A stretch of 63,245 nt of DNA from Candidatus Gastranaerophilales bacterium (GTDB lineage: Bacteria > Cyanobacteriota > Vampirovibrionia > Gastranaerophilales > Gastranaerophilaceae), in the NCBI GenBank assembly GCA_905236775.1, contig CAJOOM010000175.1, positions 1-63,245 of the forward strand. Direction: 5' to 3'. Every line of letters begins with the position of its first letter. Position 1 is the stretch's first letter. Under the pieces are notes generated by a model. It did no database searches, was not told the DNA's origin, and saw only the letters and a list, made by a program, of their open reading frames with translations. Position numbers and translations under genes: made by a program. Below, in pieces: positions 19,133 through 28,661 of the stretch.

Positions 19133-20698
19133 TTATTCTAAATTGTCGAGTTCATCTAAATCATAAAGCTCATTTTCTGCCTCTTGCTCCGGTGTAATTC
19201 CTGCATCTTTTTTGAATTTTTCCAGTATGGCATCTAAATCTGGATATTCAATTTTTGCAGGTTCTTGCTTAAATTCTCGGACAGGCTTTATCTCATTTAC
19301 ATCGTCTTTTTCTTGCTCTTGATTTATTTCAGTTTGAGCATTTTCATTTTTAGAAGTATCTTCCACTTCTTCTTTAACTTCCACTTCTTCTTTTATTGTG
19401 TTTTCATTATTTTCTTGAGAAGGTTTTACTTCTTTTTGAGGAATTGTTATTTCTGTTGTATCATTATTTTTCTTATCGTTAGCAGGTTCTATCGTTTCTT
19501 CTTGCTCTGGATTTTTAAATTTTAACAAACGATTTTTCCATGTTTCATCAGAATTATCATCCAATTTTTTCAATTTTTCTTTTAATTCTTGTTTCTTTTC
19601 TTTTTCTTCTGCTTTTTTCTGTTTTAATTCTTCTTTTGCTTTTTTCTTTAATTCTGCACTTTCTCGTTTAGCTTCGGCCTCTAACTCTGACATTGGGCGA
19701 ACATCATGTTCTTTAGAGATTTTAAATCCAACTACTGATACCGGAATTCCTGCCCCTGTTTTAGATTCTAATTTAACATTTTCATTGTTTATATCAATAC
19801 TCCACGTTCCAAGGAATTTTGGTATTCCTCCCGTATATGCATAAGCGCATACTATAATTCTATTGGAATTATTTGCATCAAAACCTATAGGATATACATC
19901 CCAACGTTTGTTTTCTAATTCTAATTTTTCTGTTTTATTCCAATAATAGCAGATTGCATTTCTTAATAAAGTTAAATTTTTTGCCTTTTTAGTCTCAAAA
20001 TCATATATCCAAACATCTGTTTTCCAAATTCCGTCATGTCTTGAACCAATTTTTTCTTTAATCAGCAGTTTTGTGCTGTCTATCGAATAATCAATCGGTG
20101 TTAATGTCCTAAAAATAGCCTTTCTAGTTGTATCGGTTTTAGTAGACAGAATAGGATTTGGGTCTTTATTTAAAATGTTAGCTTTTTTTACTCTTTCAAG
20201 ATTATTAACTGTTTCATCAAGGTTAATGACAAATAAATCACAGCTTACACTGTCTAATTCCGCATAATAATAAATTGCAGGATACACTAATTTTTTGTAA
20301 TCACCGGATACAATACCTTGTGCATTAACCTGCCTATCGTAAAACAATCTACGCGGGATATTCAATTCAGGACTTCCCACAGGCTCGTTATATCTTACCA
20401 GCTTATAAATATGCTGTGGTACGTAAATATAACTTTTATCCTTTGGTAAATCCGGTTTATCGAGAACTTCTTCTGCTATTTCTTTTCTTGTTTTAGCTCT
20501 AGACTTCTCCTCATACTCCTCCAATGTCATATAACCGGATTCTGGAAGTTTGCTCTTTTCGTATTTAATTCTTTCTTGTTCTTTTTTTTGTTGTTTAGGA
20601 GACTTAAGTTGAAGCGAATTATTTTTACGTTTTTTTAAAAAACAGATATACGTACTATCAATATTTGCAGGCATGTCTGCACAATTTGCGTATATCAT
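19133..20698 (-). CDS. Hypothetical protein with charged low-complexity C-terminus
   Basis: Long ORF; start set at the TAATG overlap with the upstream regulator stop. Confidence 0.7.
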   Translation of the reverse strand: MIYANCADMPANIDSTYICFLKKRKNNSLQLKSPKQQKKEQERIKYEKSKLPESGYMTLEEYEEKSRAKTRKEIAEEVLDKPDLPKDKSYIYVPQHIYKLVRYNEPVGSPELNIPRRLFYDRQVNAQGIVSGDYKKLVYPAIYYYAELDSVSCDLFVINLDETVNNLERVKKANILNKDPNPILSTKTDTTRKAIFRTLTPIDYSIDSTKLLIKEKIGSRHDGIWKTDVWIYDFETKKAKNLTLLRNAICYYWNKTEKLELENKRWDVYPIGFDANNSNRIIVCAYAYTGGIPKFLGTWSIDINNENVKLESKTGAGIPVSVVGFKISKEHDVRPMSELEAEAKRESAELKKKAKEELKQKKAEEKEKKQELKEKLKKLDDNSDETWKNRLLKFKNPEQEETIEPANDKKNNDTTEITIPQKEVKPSQENNENTIKEEVEVKEEVEDTSKNENAQTEINQEQEKDDVNEIKPVREFKQEPAKIEYPDLDAILEKFKKDAGITPEQEAENELYDLDELDNLE

Positions 20699-21363
20699 TA
20701 CACTAATCCTTCTTTCATCGCCATTACAGTGGCTTGAGTTCTTGATGATGCGCAAAGTTTTTGTAATATGCTATGAACGTGTGCTTTTGCTGTAGCTCTT
20801 GTGATAATAAGTTTGTCTGCTATTTGAGGATTTGTAAGTCCTTCTACCATCAGTTCCAATACATCAAGCTCTCGTTCCGTAAGTCCATATACGTTGTTAC
20901 CGGATTTTTTTACTTGTTCCGGCTCAGAAATAACTTGAGTTGATGGTTTTTGAATATTTGAAAATACCATTTTGGCAATGCTCGGATCAATCCATCCGAT
21001 TCCTTGATAAACAGATTTTATAGCCGAAATTGTTTGTTCCGGAGTTGCTCCTTTCATTATATATCCGTCTGCTCCGGCTTTAAATGACTCAAATACATCA
21101 TTTTCACTATCTCTGGACGTAAATATAAGAATCTTAACATCAGGATTAAAATCCTTTATTCTTTGTGTTGCTTCTATTCCATCAATATTAGGAAGCCCAA
21201 TGTCCATAAGTATTACATCAGGAGAAAGTTCTCTTGCTTTTTTTATACCCTCAATTCCGTCACCTGCTTCTGATAGTAATTCTATACCGTCAGCTTTACC
21301 TAATAACATTGAAAGTCCCATCCTCGTGAGTACATGATCCTCTACTAAAAGCACTTTTATCAT
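20698..21363 (-). CDS. NarL/LuxR-family response regulator
   Basis: VEDH, LMDIGLP, LTERELDVL HTH. Confidence 0.95.
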   Translation of the reverse strand: MIKVLLVEDHVLTRMGLSMLLGKADGIELLSEAGDGIEGIKKARELSPDVILMDIGLPNIDGIEATQRIKDFNPDVKILIFTSRDSENDVFESFKAGADGYIMKGATPEQTISAIKSVYQGIGWIDPSIAKMVFSNIQKPSTQVISEPEQVKKSGNNVYGLTERELDVLELMVEGLTNPQIADKLIITRATAKAHVHSILQKLCASSRTQATVMAMKEGLV

Positions 21364-22916
21364 AATAAACTTTCCTCTTTTTGTTTTACAACATCAGTCA
21401 ATAAAAATGAAAATTCACTTCCTTTGTTCAAAACACTTTCAAGCCAAATTTTTCCGCCGTGTGATTCTATAATTTGCCTTGATAGATATAAACCAAGACC
21501 GGTACCGGTAGAACGTTTTTTGCTCGTTCCTTGCGAAAATCTCTGGAACATATTCGGAATATCTTCCTGAGGAATACCCGAACCGTTATCTGATACGGAA
21601 AATATCAGGTCATTACCTTCAATTTTTAGCATAATAACGACTTTCCCATTTTCTTGAGTATAACTTATTGCATTTCCGCATAAATTGCAGATAACACGTC
21701 TTAATTCACTTCTGTCTGCACAAATATCTATATCTTTAACGTCTGTATCAATTATAAAATCTATATTTTTAGCTTTGGAAAGAGGTAAAAGTTCATCATA
21801 TACTTGTTTTACAAGGTCATAAATATTGAAATTTGTTTTTGTTAATTCAAGTTTGTCTGCATCATATTTATAAACTTCTAAAAGGGCATTAACTAAACCT
21901 AACAAATCTTCGTTACTTTTATACAGTGTAGAAATCAATAACTTTTGCTGCTCAGTAATTTCACCTAAAGTTCCGTCCAAGAAAAACTTAAGCGTTTGAA
22001 TCGCAGCAAGAAGCGGAGTTCTTAAATCGTGAGTAAGTGTTGCAATAAAATCATCTCGTAATTTATCAGATTTTTTTTGCTCGGTAACATCCCTTATAAC
22101 CCCTACAAATCTTTTATATTTGTCATCCGGATTTATTCTGGCAAAACTTATTTCTACAGGAGTTTCAGAGTTTGTAAAAGGATTCTTTACCCAAAAATCT
22201 CTCAATAAAAGTTCGCTTTCATCAAGCTTGTGCAATTCTTTTGAAATAAAGGTTTTTTTGCAAAACAAAAAATTATCAATAGATAAATTTATAAGTTTAG
22301 AACTAATGTGACCAATTAGAGTTTCGCAAGCCGGATTGACCTGCTCAATTATGCCATCTTCGTTAAGAATTACGATTCCGTCTGCACAATAACTTACAAT
22401 CCCCTCAAGCTTAGCATTTGATTGTTTTAAATCAGCAGTTCTTTCTTCTACAAGTTCTTCCAAATTGTGCGAGTATTTTTCAAGAGTTTTTTTTGCGGAT
22501 TCTAATTCCGCTATCTTTTTTCTCAATTCTGATAATAAATAGCTTCTTTCTATGCCATTCTTGATGTTTAATATCAAATCATCGTTATCCCAAGGTTTTT
22601 CTATATAACGATAAAGACCGACTTCATTTATTGCTTTAATCGCATTCTCTTTATCCGCATATCCTGTTAAGAGAATTTTACTTACTTCAGGATAAATTTT
22701 TTTTACTTCGTTTAAGAACTCTAAACCGTTCATCTCCGGCATCAGAAAATCAGAAATGACTAAATCTGGCTGGTTGTCTTTTAAAAAATCCAAAGCTTCT
22801 TTTGGGGAATTAAAAAAATGCGCATCATCAAATCCTTCTACTTTTAAAAGAGTTTTAAAAGCAGAAGTAACCATCTTTTCATCATCGACGACAACAATTT
22901 TCCCCTTAGTCTTCAT
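21360..22916 (-). CDS. Hybrid REC-PAS histidine kinase
   Basis: VDDE/SDFLMPEM REC, PAS, THDLRTPL, DNGSGI, GTGLGL. Confidence 0.95.
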   Translation of the reverse strand: MKTKGKIVVVDDEKMVTSAFKTLLKVEGFDDAHFFNSPKEALDFLKDNQPDLVISDFLMPEMNGLEFLNEVKKIYPEVSKILLTGYADKENAIKAINEVGLYRYIEKPWDNDDLILNIKNGIERSYLLSELRKKIAELESAKKTLEKYSHNLEELVEERTADLKQSNAKLEGIVSYCADGIVILNEDGIIEQVNPACETLIGHISSKLINLSIDNFLFCKKTFISKELHKLDESELLLRDFWVKNPFTNSETPVEISFARINPDDKYKRFVGVIRDVTEQKKSDKLRDDFIATLTHDLRTPLLAAIQTLKFFLDGTLGEITEQQKLLISTLYKSNEDLLGLVNALLEVYKYDADKLELTKTNFNIYDLVKQVYDELLPLSKAKNIDFIIDTDVKDIDICADRSELRRVICNLCGNAISYTQENGKVVIMLKIEGNDLIFSVSDNGSGIPQEDIPNMFQRFSQGTSKKRSTGTGLGLYLSRQIIESHGGKIWLESVLNKGSEFSFLLTDVVKQKEESLL

Positions 22917-23409
22917 ATTCTTATATTACCCTAAACACTTAAAACAGGCAAATTCAGAAAAATAAAATGGTTTTAATATTAAGAAAAATAAAAAAATCTT
23001 GCAATCTTCATCGAATGTATTTAGTTTAGTTTTCCTTATTCTCCTTATACTACTTGAGTTTTACAAACTTCATGCAGAATTTAAAAAAAATAAAAATTTA
23101 TCATTTTTTGTTATTTTCTGCGCACTTTTTAATTAACATTTTTTAATATTTGAGATAAGAGATTCTGTTAAAAAGTCAAGAGGAAATAAATATAAAACAA
23201 TTTTTAACAAAACATTCAACATGACTTGAAAAAAATAAAAAAAATTATATAATAGATAATAGAGTGTTATATATACAATTATATAGTTAGTATATGTAAC
23301 TGCATTCCTATTTATATTTTTTGGTCTCATATTTGAAATAGATAAGATAAACACTTTTTGAAAAAGATATACAAATATAGTTATAGAACTTAGAAAGGAG
23401 AAACTAACT

Positions 23410-25248
23410 ATGGTAGATGTTGGTAAAATCGTTAAATTTGTTGAAGAAAAGCTTGGAACAAAAAGTAATCAAGACGGCAAAATTCAAAGGAGTAATGCTG
23501 CTGAATATAGTTTGTTCATGGCAGAAATGGGCAGACAAGTTAGAGAAGAAGGGCTTGAAAAAACCGACTTTAACAACATGTTAAATGAAGCATTTGGTTT
23601 AGAGCTTTCAGATAAACCTGCGGCTGCGAGAAGTGGCGGACTTGGTAACGAGCCAACTGATACCAATATTAATATAACAATCAATATTGACATTGACATA
23701 GTAATAAAAGCATGTGGCGGATGTGATGAAGACAAAGAGGCTGCTCTGCAACAATTAGTGGATATGCTTATTGCTGAGATGACACGTGAGGGTGGCAAAG
23801 TTGAAAACTTTATTGTTGGCTTAATTAATGCATTCAGCAAAACCGCAGACGTTGATTTTAGCAGTTTGGAAACATTACTAAATCAAATTATGCAAAAATT
23901 AGATGAACAAGGACAAAAGATTGACGGTTTACAACAATCTGTTGATGAATTAAGCGGATATTTGAAAGGACAATTAGAAACCTTATTTAAGACATTAGAC
24001 AGATATGCTCAACGATATAATATTGATATTACTGACATAAAACAAATGCTTAAAGATTGTGATGCGAATGACAAAGAAATATTGCAGAAAATTGGTGACG
24101 TCTATAGTGCAATTATGAATTTAACCGGCATGTTCCAAGAGTTTACTAAAGTTGAGCAAACAAGATTCAATGAAGCTATGACTGCAATCAGCAATATCAA
24201 AGTAGATGGCGGTGATACATCCGGAATTATGCGTAAACTTGAATATATGGAATCATTGTTACTTGCTATTCAAAATGATACTTCTGAAACCAAAGAAAAC
24301 AGTGCTACATTAATAGAGCTTGTAAGACAAGGTAAAGAAGAAGTGTTAAATGCTATTTACAATATTAACGTAACAGGAACAGCTTATGATGATACTCAAT
24401 TAAGAAATATGTTAAACAGTATATTAACAAATATGGTAACAAAGGGCGATTTAGATGCTCAACTCGCTCAATTTAACCAATTGCTGGCTAACTTACAAAG
24501 CACAATAGAATACAAGATGAATGCTTCTGAAGAAAACATTATAAACCATATGAATAATGTTGAAAAAAATATTAAACTTGCTATTGCAAATATTACTGTT
24601 GAACCGGGAAATCCTGATAACAGCGCACTTATTTCATTGTTGAACGATCTTATGGCTAAACTTAATGAAATGGATGCAAAAAATGCTCAAAACTTCTCAA
24701 ATGTATTCCAAGCAATTGCCAATATTAAACCTGGTGAAGTTGATTTATCACAAGTATTAGCATTGTTAAATGAAATAAGAGGTCTTGCAGAAGCAAACGG
24801 TGGTAAGCTAAACAATGTATTAAACAACCAAGAAGCAATTAAATTAACATTAACCGGTATTCTTGAAGGCTTAAGCCGTTTAGAGGGCAAAGTTGACGGT
24901 GTTCGAACCGTTGTTGATGATATCAAAGACATCGTTTCAAAACTTCATAACTGTGATTGCAAATGTATTGACGAAGACAGATTGCGCGAAATCTTATGTG
25001 AGTTTGTAGATAAAGTTAATACTAAAGTCAATGAGGGTGTAAACAACGACTTATCAGATTTACTTGGTGCAAGACGTGATTTACGCAGTGTACTTGGTTT
25101 AGAAGATGTTGAGGGAGTAGAATCTCCGACAATTGAAAACAAAAACTCTCAAGTTTATGATTTGAGCGGTCGTCCGGTTAATGGACCTCTTCAAGACGGC
25201 ACGGTATATATTAGAGACGGTAAAAAGTTTATCCATAGAGCGCAATAG
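23410..25248 (+). CDS. Coiled-coil orphan with T9SS-CTD-like C-terminus
   Basis: 612 aa; SD AAAGGAG; heptad-rich; C-terminal VYDLSGRPV...GTVYIRDGKKFI. Confidence 0.8.
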   Translation: MVDVGKIVKFVEEKLGTKSNQDGKIQRSNAAEYSLFMAEMGRQVREEGLEKTDFNNMLNEAFGLELSDKPAAARSGGLGNEPTDTNINITINIDIDIVIKACGGCDEDKEAALQQLVDMLIAEMTREGGKVENFIVGLINAFSKTADVDFSSLETLLNQIMQKLDEQGQKIDGLQQSVDELSGYLKGQLETLFKTLDRYAQRYNIDITDIKQMLKDCDANDKEILQKIGDVYSAIMNLTGMFQEFTKVEQTRFNEAMTAISNIKVDGGDTSGIMRKLEYMESLLLAIQNDTSETKENSATLIELVRQGKEEVLNAIYNINVTGTAYDDTQLRNMLNSILTNMVTKGDLDAQLAQFNQLLANLQSTIEYKMNASEENIINHMNNVEKNIKLAIANITVEPGNPDNSALISLLNDLMAKLNEMDAKNAQNFSNVFQAIANIKPGEVDLSQVLALLNEIRGLAEANGGKLNNVLNNQEAIKLTLTGILEGLSRLEGKVDGVRTVVDDIKDIVSKLHNCDCKCIDEDRLREILCEFVDKVNTKVNEGVNNDLSDLLGARRDLRSVLGLEDVEGVESPTIENKNSQVYDLSGRPVNGPLQDGTVYIRDGKKFIHRAQ

Positions 25249-25279: not shown

Positions 25280-25300
25280 GGTGCGCCAAAATGGCGCACC
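25280..25300. other. GC-rich intergenic hairpin without U-tract
   Basis: GGTGCGCCA-AAA-TGGCGCACC between the two large orphans. Confidence 0.6.
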
Positions 25301-25337: not shown

Positions 25338-28300
25338 ATGAGCGGTATAGATATAAATTCTATGGATGATAATTGGAAAAAGTATGCGAAAGGAGCTGAT
25401 GAAGCTGATCGTGAAAGCGACGCAGAAAAAACAAAAGGCGACGGCATATTAAATTTAGGTTCTGTTTTTGAAAAGCAGGCATTTATAAGACTTGCCAGAG
25501 CAGATCATAAAACTGATGAAGAAATAAAAGCATTCTTTGCTGCTAATGGCGCAGATATGAAAGATATTAATGCTATTTTTCAATTAGAATTATCTAATAC
25601 TAATGCTCAAAAAACTTCTCCGTCTAGAAAGTCCGAAAAAAGAGCTAATAATGCTGCCGAAAAGGAAATTGCCGCAAGTATATTACAAGAGGGTTCAAGA
25701 TTTTATACAAATAATAACGGAACCTTAAAAGATGTTATTGATTGGAATGGCATTGCAGATGCTTTTGTACAATATTATAGCAATGATACAAATATTGTTG
25801 TAAACCAAGAATATTACAAAAAACTTGCTGCAGAAGTTAAAAATGTAGCTAATGCAATGAATAATGTAAAATACAATTCCAGACATCAGGTAGAGGCTAT
25901 TTATGATTACGTTCAAAATAATGTCTTATCAAAAATGCCAAAAGATGAGTTTTCAGAATTCAGAACATCTGTTCTAAAATCATTTGCTCTGCTTGCGGAA
26001 TCTCACCAAAAAGCAAAAGAACAACAAAAAGTAAATTGGGAGTATCAAACCTTAAGGCAACATGGTAAATCAAGAGAAGAAGCTTATAATGCAATTAAAG
26101 CTGATAAAAAATTTCAAGGTTCATACTATTCAACATATAAAAAGCCTGATTATGTTGATAGATTTAACGGAAAAGTTAAAGAATATGACCACAAAGGTAT
26201 AGTTGACAGTTTGGAAGATAATGTAATTTTAGAAGATGCCAGAAAAGAAATCTATGATGCTGTTTGGGCTCAACGCGGAAAAACTCACCTCACAACAAGC
26301 AAACAAATAGAAGATGAAGCGGAAAAATTAATACACCAAGACAAATATACCAACCGAATTATGCACAAGAATTTGCGCGGAGAAATGTCATTTAAGCAAA
26401 GAATTGAAGGTGAAAATTCCAGATACAAAGATTTGAGAAAAGCTGTTGCTGCTTATAACAGAGTAGAAAATAATAAAGTAAAAGCTTACTCAAGAGACGA
26501 TTTTTATAAAGGTGCATTTAAAGGTAAAAATGCTGACTTGAAGTTCAATCAACTTTCAAAAAGCGGATATGTACTGGGACAAGATGGTCAACCTCTAAAA
26601 GATAAAAACGGTAATCCTATATCTTATAATCCTGTAATTACTCAAGCAGTTGATGCTCAGGGAAAACCAATGACGGATAAAAATGGTAATCCGCTTTATA
26701 ATTTATCAAGAGTATCAGACATTATTAAAAGAGCAATAAGCCCCGCTGATATGAAAGCGAATTATGATTCCGATAAAGAAAGTTCATATGCTGAAATCAC
26801 AAATGTTATACGTGACATATACACTGCAACAACAGTATATGACCCTGATGATAACACTAAAATAATACAAGAAGGCATAACTATCTCGTATGAAGATACA
26901 TGCCACTTAATCGATATGTGCGGCTTTGAAAGAGATAAATGGACTGTCGGATATTTTCTCAGAACTGTGGGAAAAGCGGCAATAGATACAGTAAGTGACG
27001 TAGCTTCAACCGCAGCTACTGCTTTAATTGTTGGTGCAGCACAAGGTGACCCTCTAATACATGTAGAACAAGCTATTACTCACGTAACTGACCCTAAAGC
27101 ACATGCTGAAACAAATATAGATAAAATAACAGCCGCTCTCCTTGGTATGTCAAAGAGTCTTGGAACTATTAATCCTAATAACGGTGTTAATTTGTCACTC
27201 AACTGGAGAATTAACGTTAAAGTAAACGGTGAAAAGATTGATGTTGATTCTTCAATCAATGAATATGATATATACTCTCAACTTGACCAACAATTGGCAT
27301 CTCTCAACTTGCCTGATGATGCATACGGTATCCAAAAAGGCAGTGACGGTTTTTGGCACTTATGGTTAAATATTCCGTCTGATGAAGCATATGAAGATAT
27401 TAGAAAAGTTTCAGAAATTTTAGGCGATAATTTTGACCTAAAAACAGATACAGGAATACCATTTGAAGCAAATGCTGTAATCGACGAAAAAGGTCAAATT
27501 GTTACAGATAAACCTGCTGAAGCTGTAGTTGATGATAAAGGTAAAGCATCAACTACTAAAAAACTACAAGCTTTCTTATGGGGTACTGCAATTGGTTTTG
27601 GTTTAAATCTACTTAAGGAATGTTTAAAAGGACTTAAAAATACTGATATCGATTTAACAAATACTATAATAGAAGAGGAAGATTTAGCACATTATGCTGC
27701 AAGACTTTCTAAAGAGAGAATAGCAGCAACTCCCAAATTAAAAGATGCTCTGTTACAAATTGCTAAGTTATTTGAAAAAGAAGACGGAACTTGGGATAGA
27801 GTTGCATATCAAACATTCATAAATGAACTTGCCGGTGGCAGAAGTATGTTAAATGCCAGAGAACTTGAAATTGGTATCATAAAATGGCAAAAAGAACATG
27901 AACCTACACTTGAACCTAAAAAAGTTGAAAAACCGACAGAAACAAAAGTTGAAACACCAAAAACAAAAGTTCAAGACAGACCAATTCCTGAAGATACTTA
28001 CTTTACAGCACAAGAAAGAATTAGCGGCTATACAGGTGAGTACACTAAAGGTGTTCGCTGGGATTCTTTGGCTAAACAGTACGATGATTTGGACAAATAT
28101 GTTAAGAAGTCCGGCGATAGAGTAAGAATGATGAAAGTTATTCAAGGTGTAAATAATAACAATTATACTCTTGAAAATCTGAAAAAATTAACCGAATTGT
28201 CATTCAAAGTAGGCGCAGACCTAGCAAAACTGCGTTCTTCAAATAAATCCGAAAGAGAAGCAGAACTTAAAAGAATTAAAACTGCTTTAAACAGAGTATT

Positions 28301-28661
28301 CAAAGATGTTCAAGGTTTTGACGTTAACGAATACATGAAAGCATTTGTCGGTGATATTATAGGAGACCAAAAAACTCCGGAAATCATAGTTGATAATAAT
28401 ACAAGATTAAAGCGAAATAAAAATATTGCGGATGTTGTTGATAAAAACGGTTCCGGCGGAAATAGTATACGTTCCGGCATGGCAAAGGATAAAAATACAA
28501 AAGAACTTGATGTTACCGTCGATAAAAAAACAAGAACATTTAAAGACGGCGAACAGCAACAAGCTGAACAATATATTCTGGAAACCGACCAAAACGGACC
28601 CCACTATGACTATAGAAACAGTAGAACTGATTTATACTTTAATGGTAAAAAAATAGAATAA
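25338..28661 (+). CDS. Large orphan protein with two internal hydrophobic segments
   Basis: 1107 aa; SD AAGGAG; no signal peptide. Confidence 0.8.
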   Translation: MSGIDINSMDDNWKKYAKGADEADRESDAEKTKGDGILNLGSVFEKQAFIRLARADHKTDEEIKAFFAANGADMKDINAIFQLELSNTNAQKTSPSRKSEKRANNAAEKEIAASILQEGSRFYTNNNGTLKDVIDWNGIADAFVQYYSNDTNIVVNQEYYKKLAAEVKNVANAMNNVKYNSRHQVEAIYDYVQNNVLSKMPKDEFSEFRTSVLKSFALLAESHQKAKEQQKVNWEYQTLRQHGKSREEAYNAIKADKKFQGSYYSTYKKPDYVDRFNGKVKEYDHKGIVDSLEDNVILEDARKEIYDAVWAQRGKTHLTTSKQIEDEAEKLIHQDKYTNRIMHKNLRGEMSFKQRIEGENSRYKDLRKAVAAYNRVENNKVKAYSRDDFYKGAFKGKNADLKFNQLSKSGYVLGQDGQPLKDKNGNPISYNPVITQAVDAQGKPMTDKNGNPLYNLSRVSDIIKRAISPADMKANYDSDKESSYAEITNVIRDIYTATTVYDPDDNTKIIQEGITISYEDTCHLIDMCGFERDKWTVGYFLRTVGKAAIDTVSDVASTAATALIVGAAQGDPLIHVEQAITHVTDPKAHAETNIDKITAALLGMSKSLGTINPNNGVNLSLNWRINVKVNGEKIDVDSSINEYDIYSQLDQQLASLNLPDDAYGIQKGSDGFWHLWLNIPSDEAYEDIRKVSEILGDNFDLKTDTGIPFEANAVIDEKGQIVTDKPAEAVVDDKGKASTTKKLQAFLWGTAIGFGLNLLKECLKGLKNTDIDLTNTIIEEEDLAHYAARLSKERIAATPKLKDALLQIAKLFEKEDGTWDRVAYQTFINELAGGRSMLNARELEIGIIKWQKEHEPTLEPKKVEKPTETKVETPKTKVQDRPIPEDTYFTAQERISGYTGEYTKGVRWDSLAKQYDDLDKYVKKSGDRVRMMKVIQGVNNNNYTLENLKKLTELSFKVGADLAKLRSSNKSEREAELKRIKTALNRVFKDVQGFDVNEYMKAFVGDIIGDQKTPEIIVDNNTRLKRNKNIADVVDKNGSGGNSIRSGMAKDKNTKELDVTVDKKTRTFKDGEQQQAEQYILETDQNGPHYDYRNSRTDLYFNGKKIE

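Follow-up and report, generated by a model that had tools for sequence, protein, structure and literature searches.

The window analysed here, a stretch of 63,245 nucleotides, is one contig (C175) of a Gastranaerophilales genome (G000) of 2.1 Mb that is 93.7% complete and 0.97% contaminated. It encodes a 612-amino-acid protein, P0002, which ends in a tail resembling the short C-terminal domains (CTDs) of type IX secretion systems (T9SS) (Table 1). Window positions 25060-25248 are the C-terminal end of this ORF and carry the sequence quoted in the initial annotation, which had described a T9SS sorting-signal look-alike on a non-Bacteroidota protein that has no signal peptide. That description of the protein holds. 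An in-frame stop lies 16 codons upstream of the ATG; since this stop and the ribosome-binding site together fix the start, a signal peptide cannot be added to the ORF. Signal peptide, membrane segment and lipobox are all absent from P0002, and its hydropathy over 15 residues reaches at most 1.33.

The leader can be aligned, within the genus, with the leaders of unrelated CTD-bearing proteins and with those of partner proteins, and Arg motifs similar to AAARSGG were matched in 10/12 tail-bearing members. The number of repeats in the body varies, giving orthologues of 588-994 aa (alignments A1 and A2). An AF2 model of the full-length protein has a pLDDT of 51.6 overall and about 80 in the tail, and is helical except for the last 30 residues. 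The curated NCBIfam and Pfam cut-offs are reached by neither the whole protein nor the tail alone.

The tail gene and its partner are separated by a perfect 9-bp GC-rich inverted repeat (window 25280-25300) with no T-run behind it. On the other side, a hybrid histidine kinase and a NarL-type regulator (window 20698-22916 / 22917-23409) are divergent from the tail gene and separated from it by an AT-rich gap of 490 bp. A 540-aa ORF at window 19133-20755 belongs to no known family and has a long C-terminal part rich in Lys and Glu.

Table 1. Features of the P0002 locus, in window coordinates.
Feature	Position	Strand	Remarks
612-aa ORF (P0002)	23410..25248	+	Leader, helical body, short T9SS-type CTD
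Ribosome-binding site AGAAAGGAG	23392..23400	+	Strong; 9 nt upstream of ATG; from sequence
N-terminal leader, ~70 aa	23410..23613	+	From alignment; putative export role
Flexible Arg-containing linker AAARSGG after leader	23620..23640	+	Possible processing site
All-helical coiled-coil-like body	23734..25020	+	Low-confidence AF2 model and alignments
CxCxC...NEG family signature	24853..25068	+	Tail-less paralogues end here
GARR linker	25066..25113	+	Joins family end to CTD; from alignments
44-aa short T9SS-type CTD	25114..25245	+	Predicted cleavage E568/G569-V570 (PT/GI-like)
CTD motif B, YDLSGR	25156-25173	+	
CTD motif D, GTVYI	25198-25212	+	
CTD motif E, GKK	25219-25227	+	
1107-aa partner gene	25338..28661	+	No known family; directly downstream in 9/9 tail-bearing loci with DNA

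The tail and the short CTDs of Bacteroidota

The short CTDs of Prevotella intermedia are 43-55 aa long, and the available text of PMC11969387 describes them as cut at PT/GI, with other residues at the cleavage site tolerated, and as cleaved and glycosylated. Their motif B consists of Tyr, Gly and then Arg or Lys, motif D is G-x-Y-I, and motif E is a basic pair; they are recognised in the periplasm after Sec export, bind PorV and are cleaved at the cell surface (PMC11969387, same text). Counted from G569, the P0002 tail is 44 aa long and thus falls inside this range, with motifs B, D and E in the published order and at the short spacing. Its cleavage motif is VE/GV rather than T/GI, while most orthologues have TG(I/V) or DGI. 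Among the tails, the motif residues are invariant and the spacers diverge.

An HMM built from 44 unique tails of signal-peptide-bearing proteins gave the P0002 tail 52.6 bits, compared with -1.9 for the reversed tail and 10.9 for the best of 5000 shuffled tails, and picked it out as the only match in the genome's 4053 ORFs (E 1.4e-13, the next at E 1). There is some circularity in this test, since the tails had been retrieved by a profile that included the query. A phmmer search with the tail alone against 1.84 billion proteins, which is free of this circularity, returned 12 matches at E<=0.001: the protein itself, seven tail-to-tail matches, and four repeat-driven, non-terminal ones that we set aside (P0025-P0028). 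Three of the seven have leaders resembling that of P0002, and one tail-to-tail match (52% identity) is a 1597-aa signal-peptide/Big_5 protein. Since a single tail query found no relative in 40 related genomes, profiles were needed. Of 7995 candidates, 2967 were matched by profile A4, built from eight tails. In each of the 116 proteins newly listed, the match falls within six residues of the C-terminus, and 58 of them pass a crude signal-peptide rule. LRR_5, GH43 and peptidase C10 domains are typical of these 116, of which two carry the name Bacteroidaceae/Bacteroidales and five belong to the P0002 family. Seven matches were obtained with A4 in the PDB; one is to an arabinanase at its C-terminus (4KCA, E 2.6e-11), and four, weak ones, are to RgpB CTD chains (E 0.08-0.6).

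The initial annotation had suggested a check with TIGR04183, and here the outcome was negative: neither this profile nor PF18962 matched the P0002 tail. PF18962, at E<=0.001, also misses Bacteroidales-type short-tail proteins (P0032-P0035). Its sequence similarity to short CTDs is nevertheless strong. A model of the tail alone (pLDDT 78) has a C-terminal hairpin and a short first strand, and its matches in a fold search were weak (best Z 2.9; HBP35 Z 2.5; RgpB CTD E 3.6). An Atlas search gave 30 matches at about 0.94 that share no common family; the nearest named clusters, Por_Secre_tail/DUF6383 at 0.76-0.79, are a lead only. Plasmid and phage searches gave nothing usable, with one unannotated record at E 3e-3. 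By sequence, the tail belongs with the short type A CTDs. P0002 itself is not a member of the T9SS cargo, because it has no Sec signal and no cognate T9SS was found.

Tails, partners and paralogues across the genus

CTD-like tails occur in 38 of 98 genomes of the genus, 29 of which supplied seed sequences, and both tail profiles matched 0/280 genomes of other Gastranaerophilales genera. The 38 consist of 35 found at E<=0.001 with a profile of a second, permuted tail type (25 seed sequences) and three found with A4 (G000, G068 and G102). In 29/30 loci found with the smaller profile, four of them seeds, the protein ends no more than four residues from the tail match. The bodies that carry tails fall into at least four groups mutually unrelated by BLAST, most of them with an alignable 70-aa leader. 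The coiled-coil family to which P0002 belongs was present in 21/21 genomes of the genus and 0/280 others.

Weak, non-terminal tail matches in five loci (L077-L079, L081 and L110) were set aside. A candidate second tail in G000 (C153:159-1316), the degenerate tail-like end of a leader-bearing 386-aa protein with a TTG linker, was rejected as not significant (rank 199/3001 against shuffles). In the 360-aa family, four tail-bearing proteins (L106, L108, L109 and L113) start with a signal-peptide-like segment where their relatives have the 70-aa leader, and in three of the four this segment ends in Ala-Gln, which we take to resemble the Q-rule of Bacteroidetes. Members of a family of about 260 aa (L088, L093, L095 and L100) have acidic Asn/Asp-rich repeats between leader and permuted tail. 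One coiled-coil family member (L060:3-1220, genome G013) has a short non-CTD extension past the signature, with a basic and aromatic end.

The partner family is present in 33/98 genomes of the genus. Across 20 partner loci, the upstream gene is tail-bearing in five and a tail-less relative in 12, with none in view in three. Some orthologues of P0002 carry the permuted tail type, in which, after the same TGI linker, a beta-hairpin comes before the YDLxG motif; it is presumably a Bacteroidales CTD form. It matched no curated CTD family, and one occurrence at a C-terminus was found on a 47%-GC contig (13.1 bits, best shuffle 10.0). Between two orthologues, P0029 and L011, identity is 68% across 915 columns, yet their tail types differ. 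In a quick tree made from 23 partner proteins, a branch (SH-aLRT 99) has the nine tail-bearing loci on one side, and at least two changes of tail type fall on this tree. Tail types have been swapped between orthologues.

The tail-less paralogues, which end at the CxCxC...NEG signature, carry a different signal. All 24 in a first set, which includes several near-duplicates, have an internal hydrophobic stretch followed by a lipobox, with Ser directly before the Cys in 24/24 and at least two acidic residues at +2 to +7 in 14/24. The lipobox Cys lies at residue 85-371, behind the leader, so the signal is internal and not N-terminal. We examined a fresh set of 20 further loci picked blind to the lipobox, one gene of which repeats L067. 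An internal lipobox was found in 17/19 classified proteins (16 with Ser, 15 acidic) and a tail in none; one exception has a weak lipobox and one has none, and the unclassified protein also has a lipobox. The internal lipobox was found in 0/12 tail-bearing members. A loose lipobox rule fires on 23/323 similar-sized ORFs of G000. Native N-terminal lipoprotein candidates have Ser in 3/13 and at least two acidic residues in 0/13. Ser before the lipobox Cys is typical of Bacteroidota. The available text of PMC5080379 gives SDDDD, the signal of Bacteroides, and K-(D/E)2 after the Cys as the surface export signal of Bacteroidota. G000 has two tail-less paralogues (C85:824-3034 and C139:3045-4850), and each has the internal lipobox. 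The one on C85 lies facing a gene paralogous to the 1107-aa partner. The coiled-coil family thus appears to use either of two Bacteroidota surface-display addresses, never both in our sample, an exclusivity that may reflect a single evolutionary exchange because tail-bearing and tail-less loci form two clades.

The producer and possible explanations

Searches of G000 for SprA, GldN/PorN and GldM/PorM found none of them, and no positive control matched in these searches. The PorV family, in a search whose control did match, was above the cut-off in 0/98 genomes of the genus (one weak match, E 9e-4). Six flagellin matches were found in G000, along with two copies each of FlhA (39% identical to each other) and FliF; a compact fliE-like/fliF/fliG-like/fliH/flhA cluster (C17:168-6495) is a second one beside the flagellar set. 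No VirB4 match was found in G000, and Lgt is encoded. In 11/22 loci of relatives, only a few kb separate the partner gene from the second fliF, an arrangement that G000 itself lacks. A profile of the leader matched only three G000 proteins at E<0.01 and missed the partner protein of the window. We infer that the leader is a signal for export through the second flagellar-type apparatus.

Our preferred reading, to which we assign a probability of about 0.5, is that P0002 and its relatives are exported effectors addressed to the surface-display pathways of Bacteroidales hosts, the tail being used inside another cell by the host's T9SS, which would imply an undescribed parasitic or predatory lifestyle. 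The second flagellar-type apparatus would export P0002, by means of its leader, into the envelope of a Prevotella-like host. The host T9SS would then translocate the protein, and host PorU would cut the tail at E568/G569 and leave the helical body attached to host LPS as a stalk on the host surface. There, stalk and partner protein would most likely act as a covalent tether or as an occupancy mark. Because CTDs are read in the periplasm, straight delivery of the protein to the host periplasm would account for a tail without a signal peptide.

Several lines of evidence favour this reading: the fit of the tail to short CTDs in sequence, length and motif order; the T9SS components sought in the producer and not found; the recurrence of tails on at least four unrelated bodies in this genus, with none in 280 genomes of other genera; the retention of a tail by homologues at only 37-81% identity; the swapped tail types of P0029 and L011; the Bacteroidota-style lipobox of tail-less paralogues, unlike native candidates; the two FlhA/FliF sets, with the partner gene often near the second fliF; and an obligate predator in a sister order (PMC4451040, available text). 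Other observations count against it. The tail needs periplasmic delivery, whereas the simplest way to read an internal lipobox is from the cytoplasm, and with its own Lgt G000 could process the lipobox at home. The ordinary signal-peptide-like start of L106, L109 and L113 would suit Sec export by the producer itself. Few proteins are found by the leader profile, which misses the window's partner, and the fliF linkage may be one ancestral arrangement. The cleavage motif is E/GV rather than T/GI, and the second tail type is without a match to curated CTD families. The full proposal is that the whole genus lives by parasitising Bacteroidales or preying on them as periplasmic predators, and that it injects proteins by repurposed flagellar export and uses host T9SS and lipoprotein addresses, so that the host covalently decorates its own surface and tail type predicts host lineage. 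We hold this broader version somewhat more tentatively.

Could the tail be an artefact of assembly? The body-tail junction was not bridged by contigs of four independent runs, and one locus (L082, on G062:C250) was set aside as a probable Bacteroidales contaminant contig (GC3 0.42, long cargo-like ORF). However, all six other homologues from the first homologue search end in a tail (37-81% identity), and the same architecture and gene order, with the tail gene followed by a partner of about 900-1100 aa, recur in eight other assemblies with DNA (G022, G066, G079, G075, G044, G068, G102 and a metagenome contig). P0002 was found on four contigs, the largest of 149,885 bp, and P0003 on three. GC is even across the window, and contamination of the genome is low. 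The window is not chimeric, an explanation already refuted by the independent orthologues, and a chimera or contaminant has a negligible chance of accounting for the tail. None of the findings that the initial annotation had named as fatal to its idea (no CTD similarity, a T9SS of the producer's own, or a chimeric contig) was made. A neutral relic or functionless convergence is highly improbable as well: the tail is present in only about 40% of genus genomes and the candidate second G000 tail is not significant, but motif residues are invariant despite divergent spacers, and reading frames end exactly at the tail in 29/30 loci.

Two further explanations carry more weight. Instead of being delivered, the protein may stay on or near the producer, with the tail at the tip of the stalk binding surface PorV or PorU/PorZ of Bacteroidales from outside as a ligand or decoy; it could then serve as an adhesin for host recognition or a tether made by the sortase, or compete with host cargo. 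CTDs do bind PorV and are cut at the cell surface (PMC11969387, available text), the stalk varies in length, tail-type swapping would suit the tuning of host range, no host entry is required, and the lipobox paralogues could anchor in the producer's envelope. This leaves unexplained why the lipoprotein signals of the tail-less paralogues are of the Bacteroidota style and not of the native one, and why tails sit on several unrelated bodies, and the tail-bearing members have no visible anchor; we consider it rather unlikely. The other is that a tail captured from Bacteroidales serves as a folding cap or as a tag for a native exporter, with no host involved, which the initial annotation had offered as its alternative. 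The habitat, where pieces 99% identical occur in two sheep-gut runs (X2 and X4), is rich in Bacteroidales as donors of DNA, the codon use of the tail is ameliorated (GC3 0.29, compared with 0.25 for the body) and the producer has its own Lgt; as the two GC3 values are near each other, the tail is not a fresh capture. A cap, however, has no reason to keep an unstructured cleavage-site linker and its spacing, and needs neither the exchange of two permuted types nor the alternation with a second Bacteroidota-style signal, while no PorV-like reader was found in the 98 genus genomes. The captured domain is thus weakened, and we regard it as unlikely. Mimicry or hijacking of a neighbour's T9SS, the annotation's leading idea, gains from three patterns: the tail recurs on proteins unrelated to each other, tail types are swapped, and a second signal alternates with the tail; its core, use by a host, is still what we infer from these patterns.

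Comparison with known systems

The guts of humans and animals commonly contain Gastranaerophilales, whose way of life is not settled. In the literature searched, mainly papers outside subscription, we found no report of T9SS signals in Gastranaerophilales or of the use of a host's T9SS, and no case of an effector addressed to another bacterium's secretion system. The accessible part of PMC11205867 does not mention use of a host T9SS; that of a preprint (10.64898/2026.04.24.720558) presents Gastranaerophilales as fermenting symbionts, most of which keep a partial flagellar gene set, and parasitism is absent from it. The tail pattern is real and, as far as searched, undescribed; the lifestyle drawn from it is testable. 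Host-specific sorting signals name candidate hosts (short-CTD Bacteroidales such as Prevotella), so co-culture and imaging can test the proposal directly. If it is true, the T9SS of one bacterium is used by proteins of another phylum, a new kind of inter-bacterial interaction, and the tails would be natural, portable tags for surface display in Bacteroidales.

The P0002 tail is closest to the short type A CTDs of P. intermedia (PMC11969387, available text), which it resembles in lying at the extreme C-terminus, 44 aa from the predicted cleavage site, and in its GI/GV cleavage motif, a motif B of the form Y..G(R/K), G-x-Y-I in motif D and a Lys pair in motif E. It differs from them in that P0002 has no Sec signal, no T9SS was found in the producer, the cleavage motif is E/GV and motif D has an extra residue; the P. 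intermedia CTDs were shown to be cleaved and glycosylated, steps that the P0002 tail would undergo. The paralogues resemble Bacteroidota surface lipoproteins (PMC5080379, available text) in having a hydrophobic stretch, a lipobox Cys and, from +2 to +7, residues that are polar and acidic, but their signal is internal, lies behind a leader and occurs in a cyanobacterial lineage, with lipidation predicted. Vampirovibrio chlorellavorus belongs to the same class, and contact-dependent delivery of proteins into a host has been proposed there; that system involves a T4SS and an alga (PMC4451040, available text), while no VirB4 match was found in G000, whose signals suggest that the host is a bacterium.

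Effectors of T3SS and T4SS can carry host sorting signals, whether nuclear, mitochondrial or for prenylation. Like such effectors, P0002 would combine an export signal of the producer with an address for a host compartment on one protein; unlike them, its address belongs to the secretion system of another bacterium.
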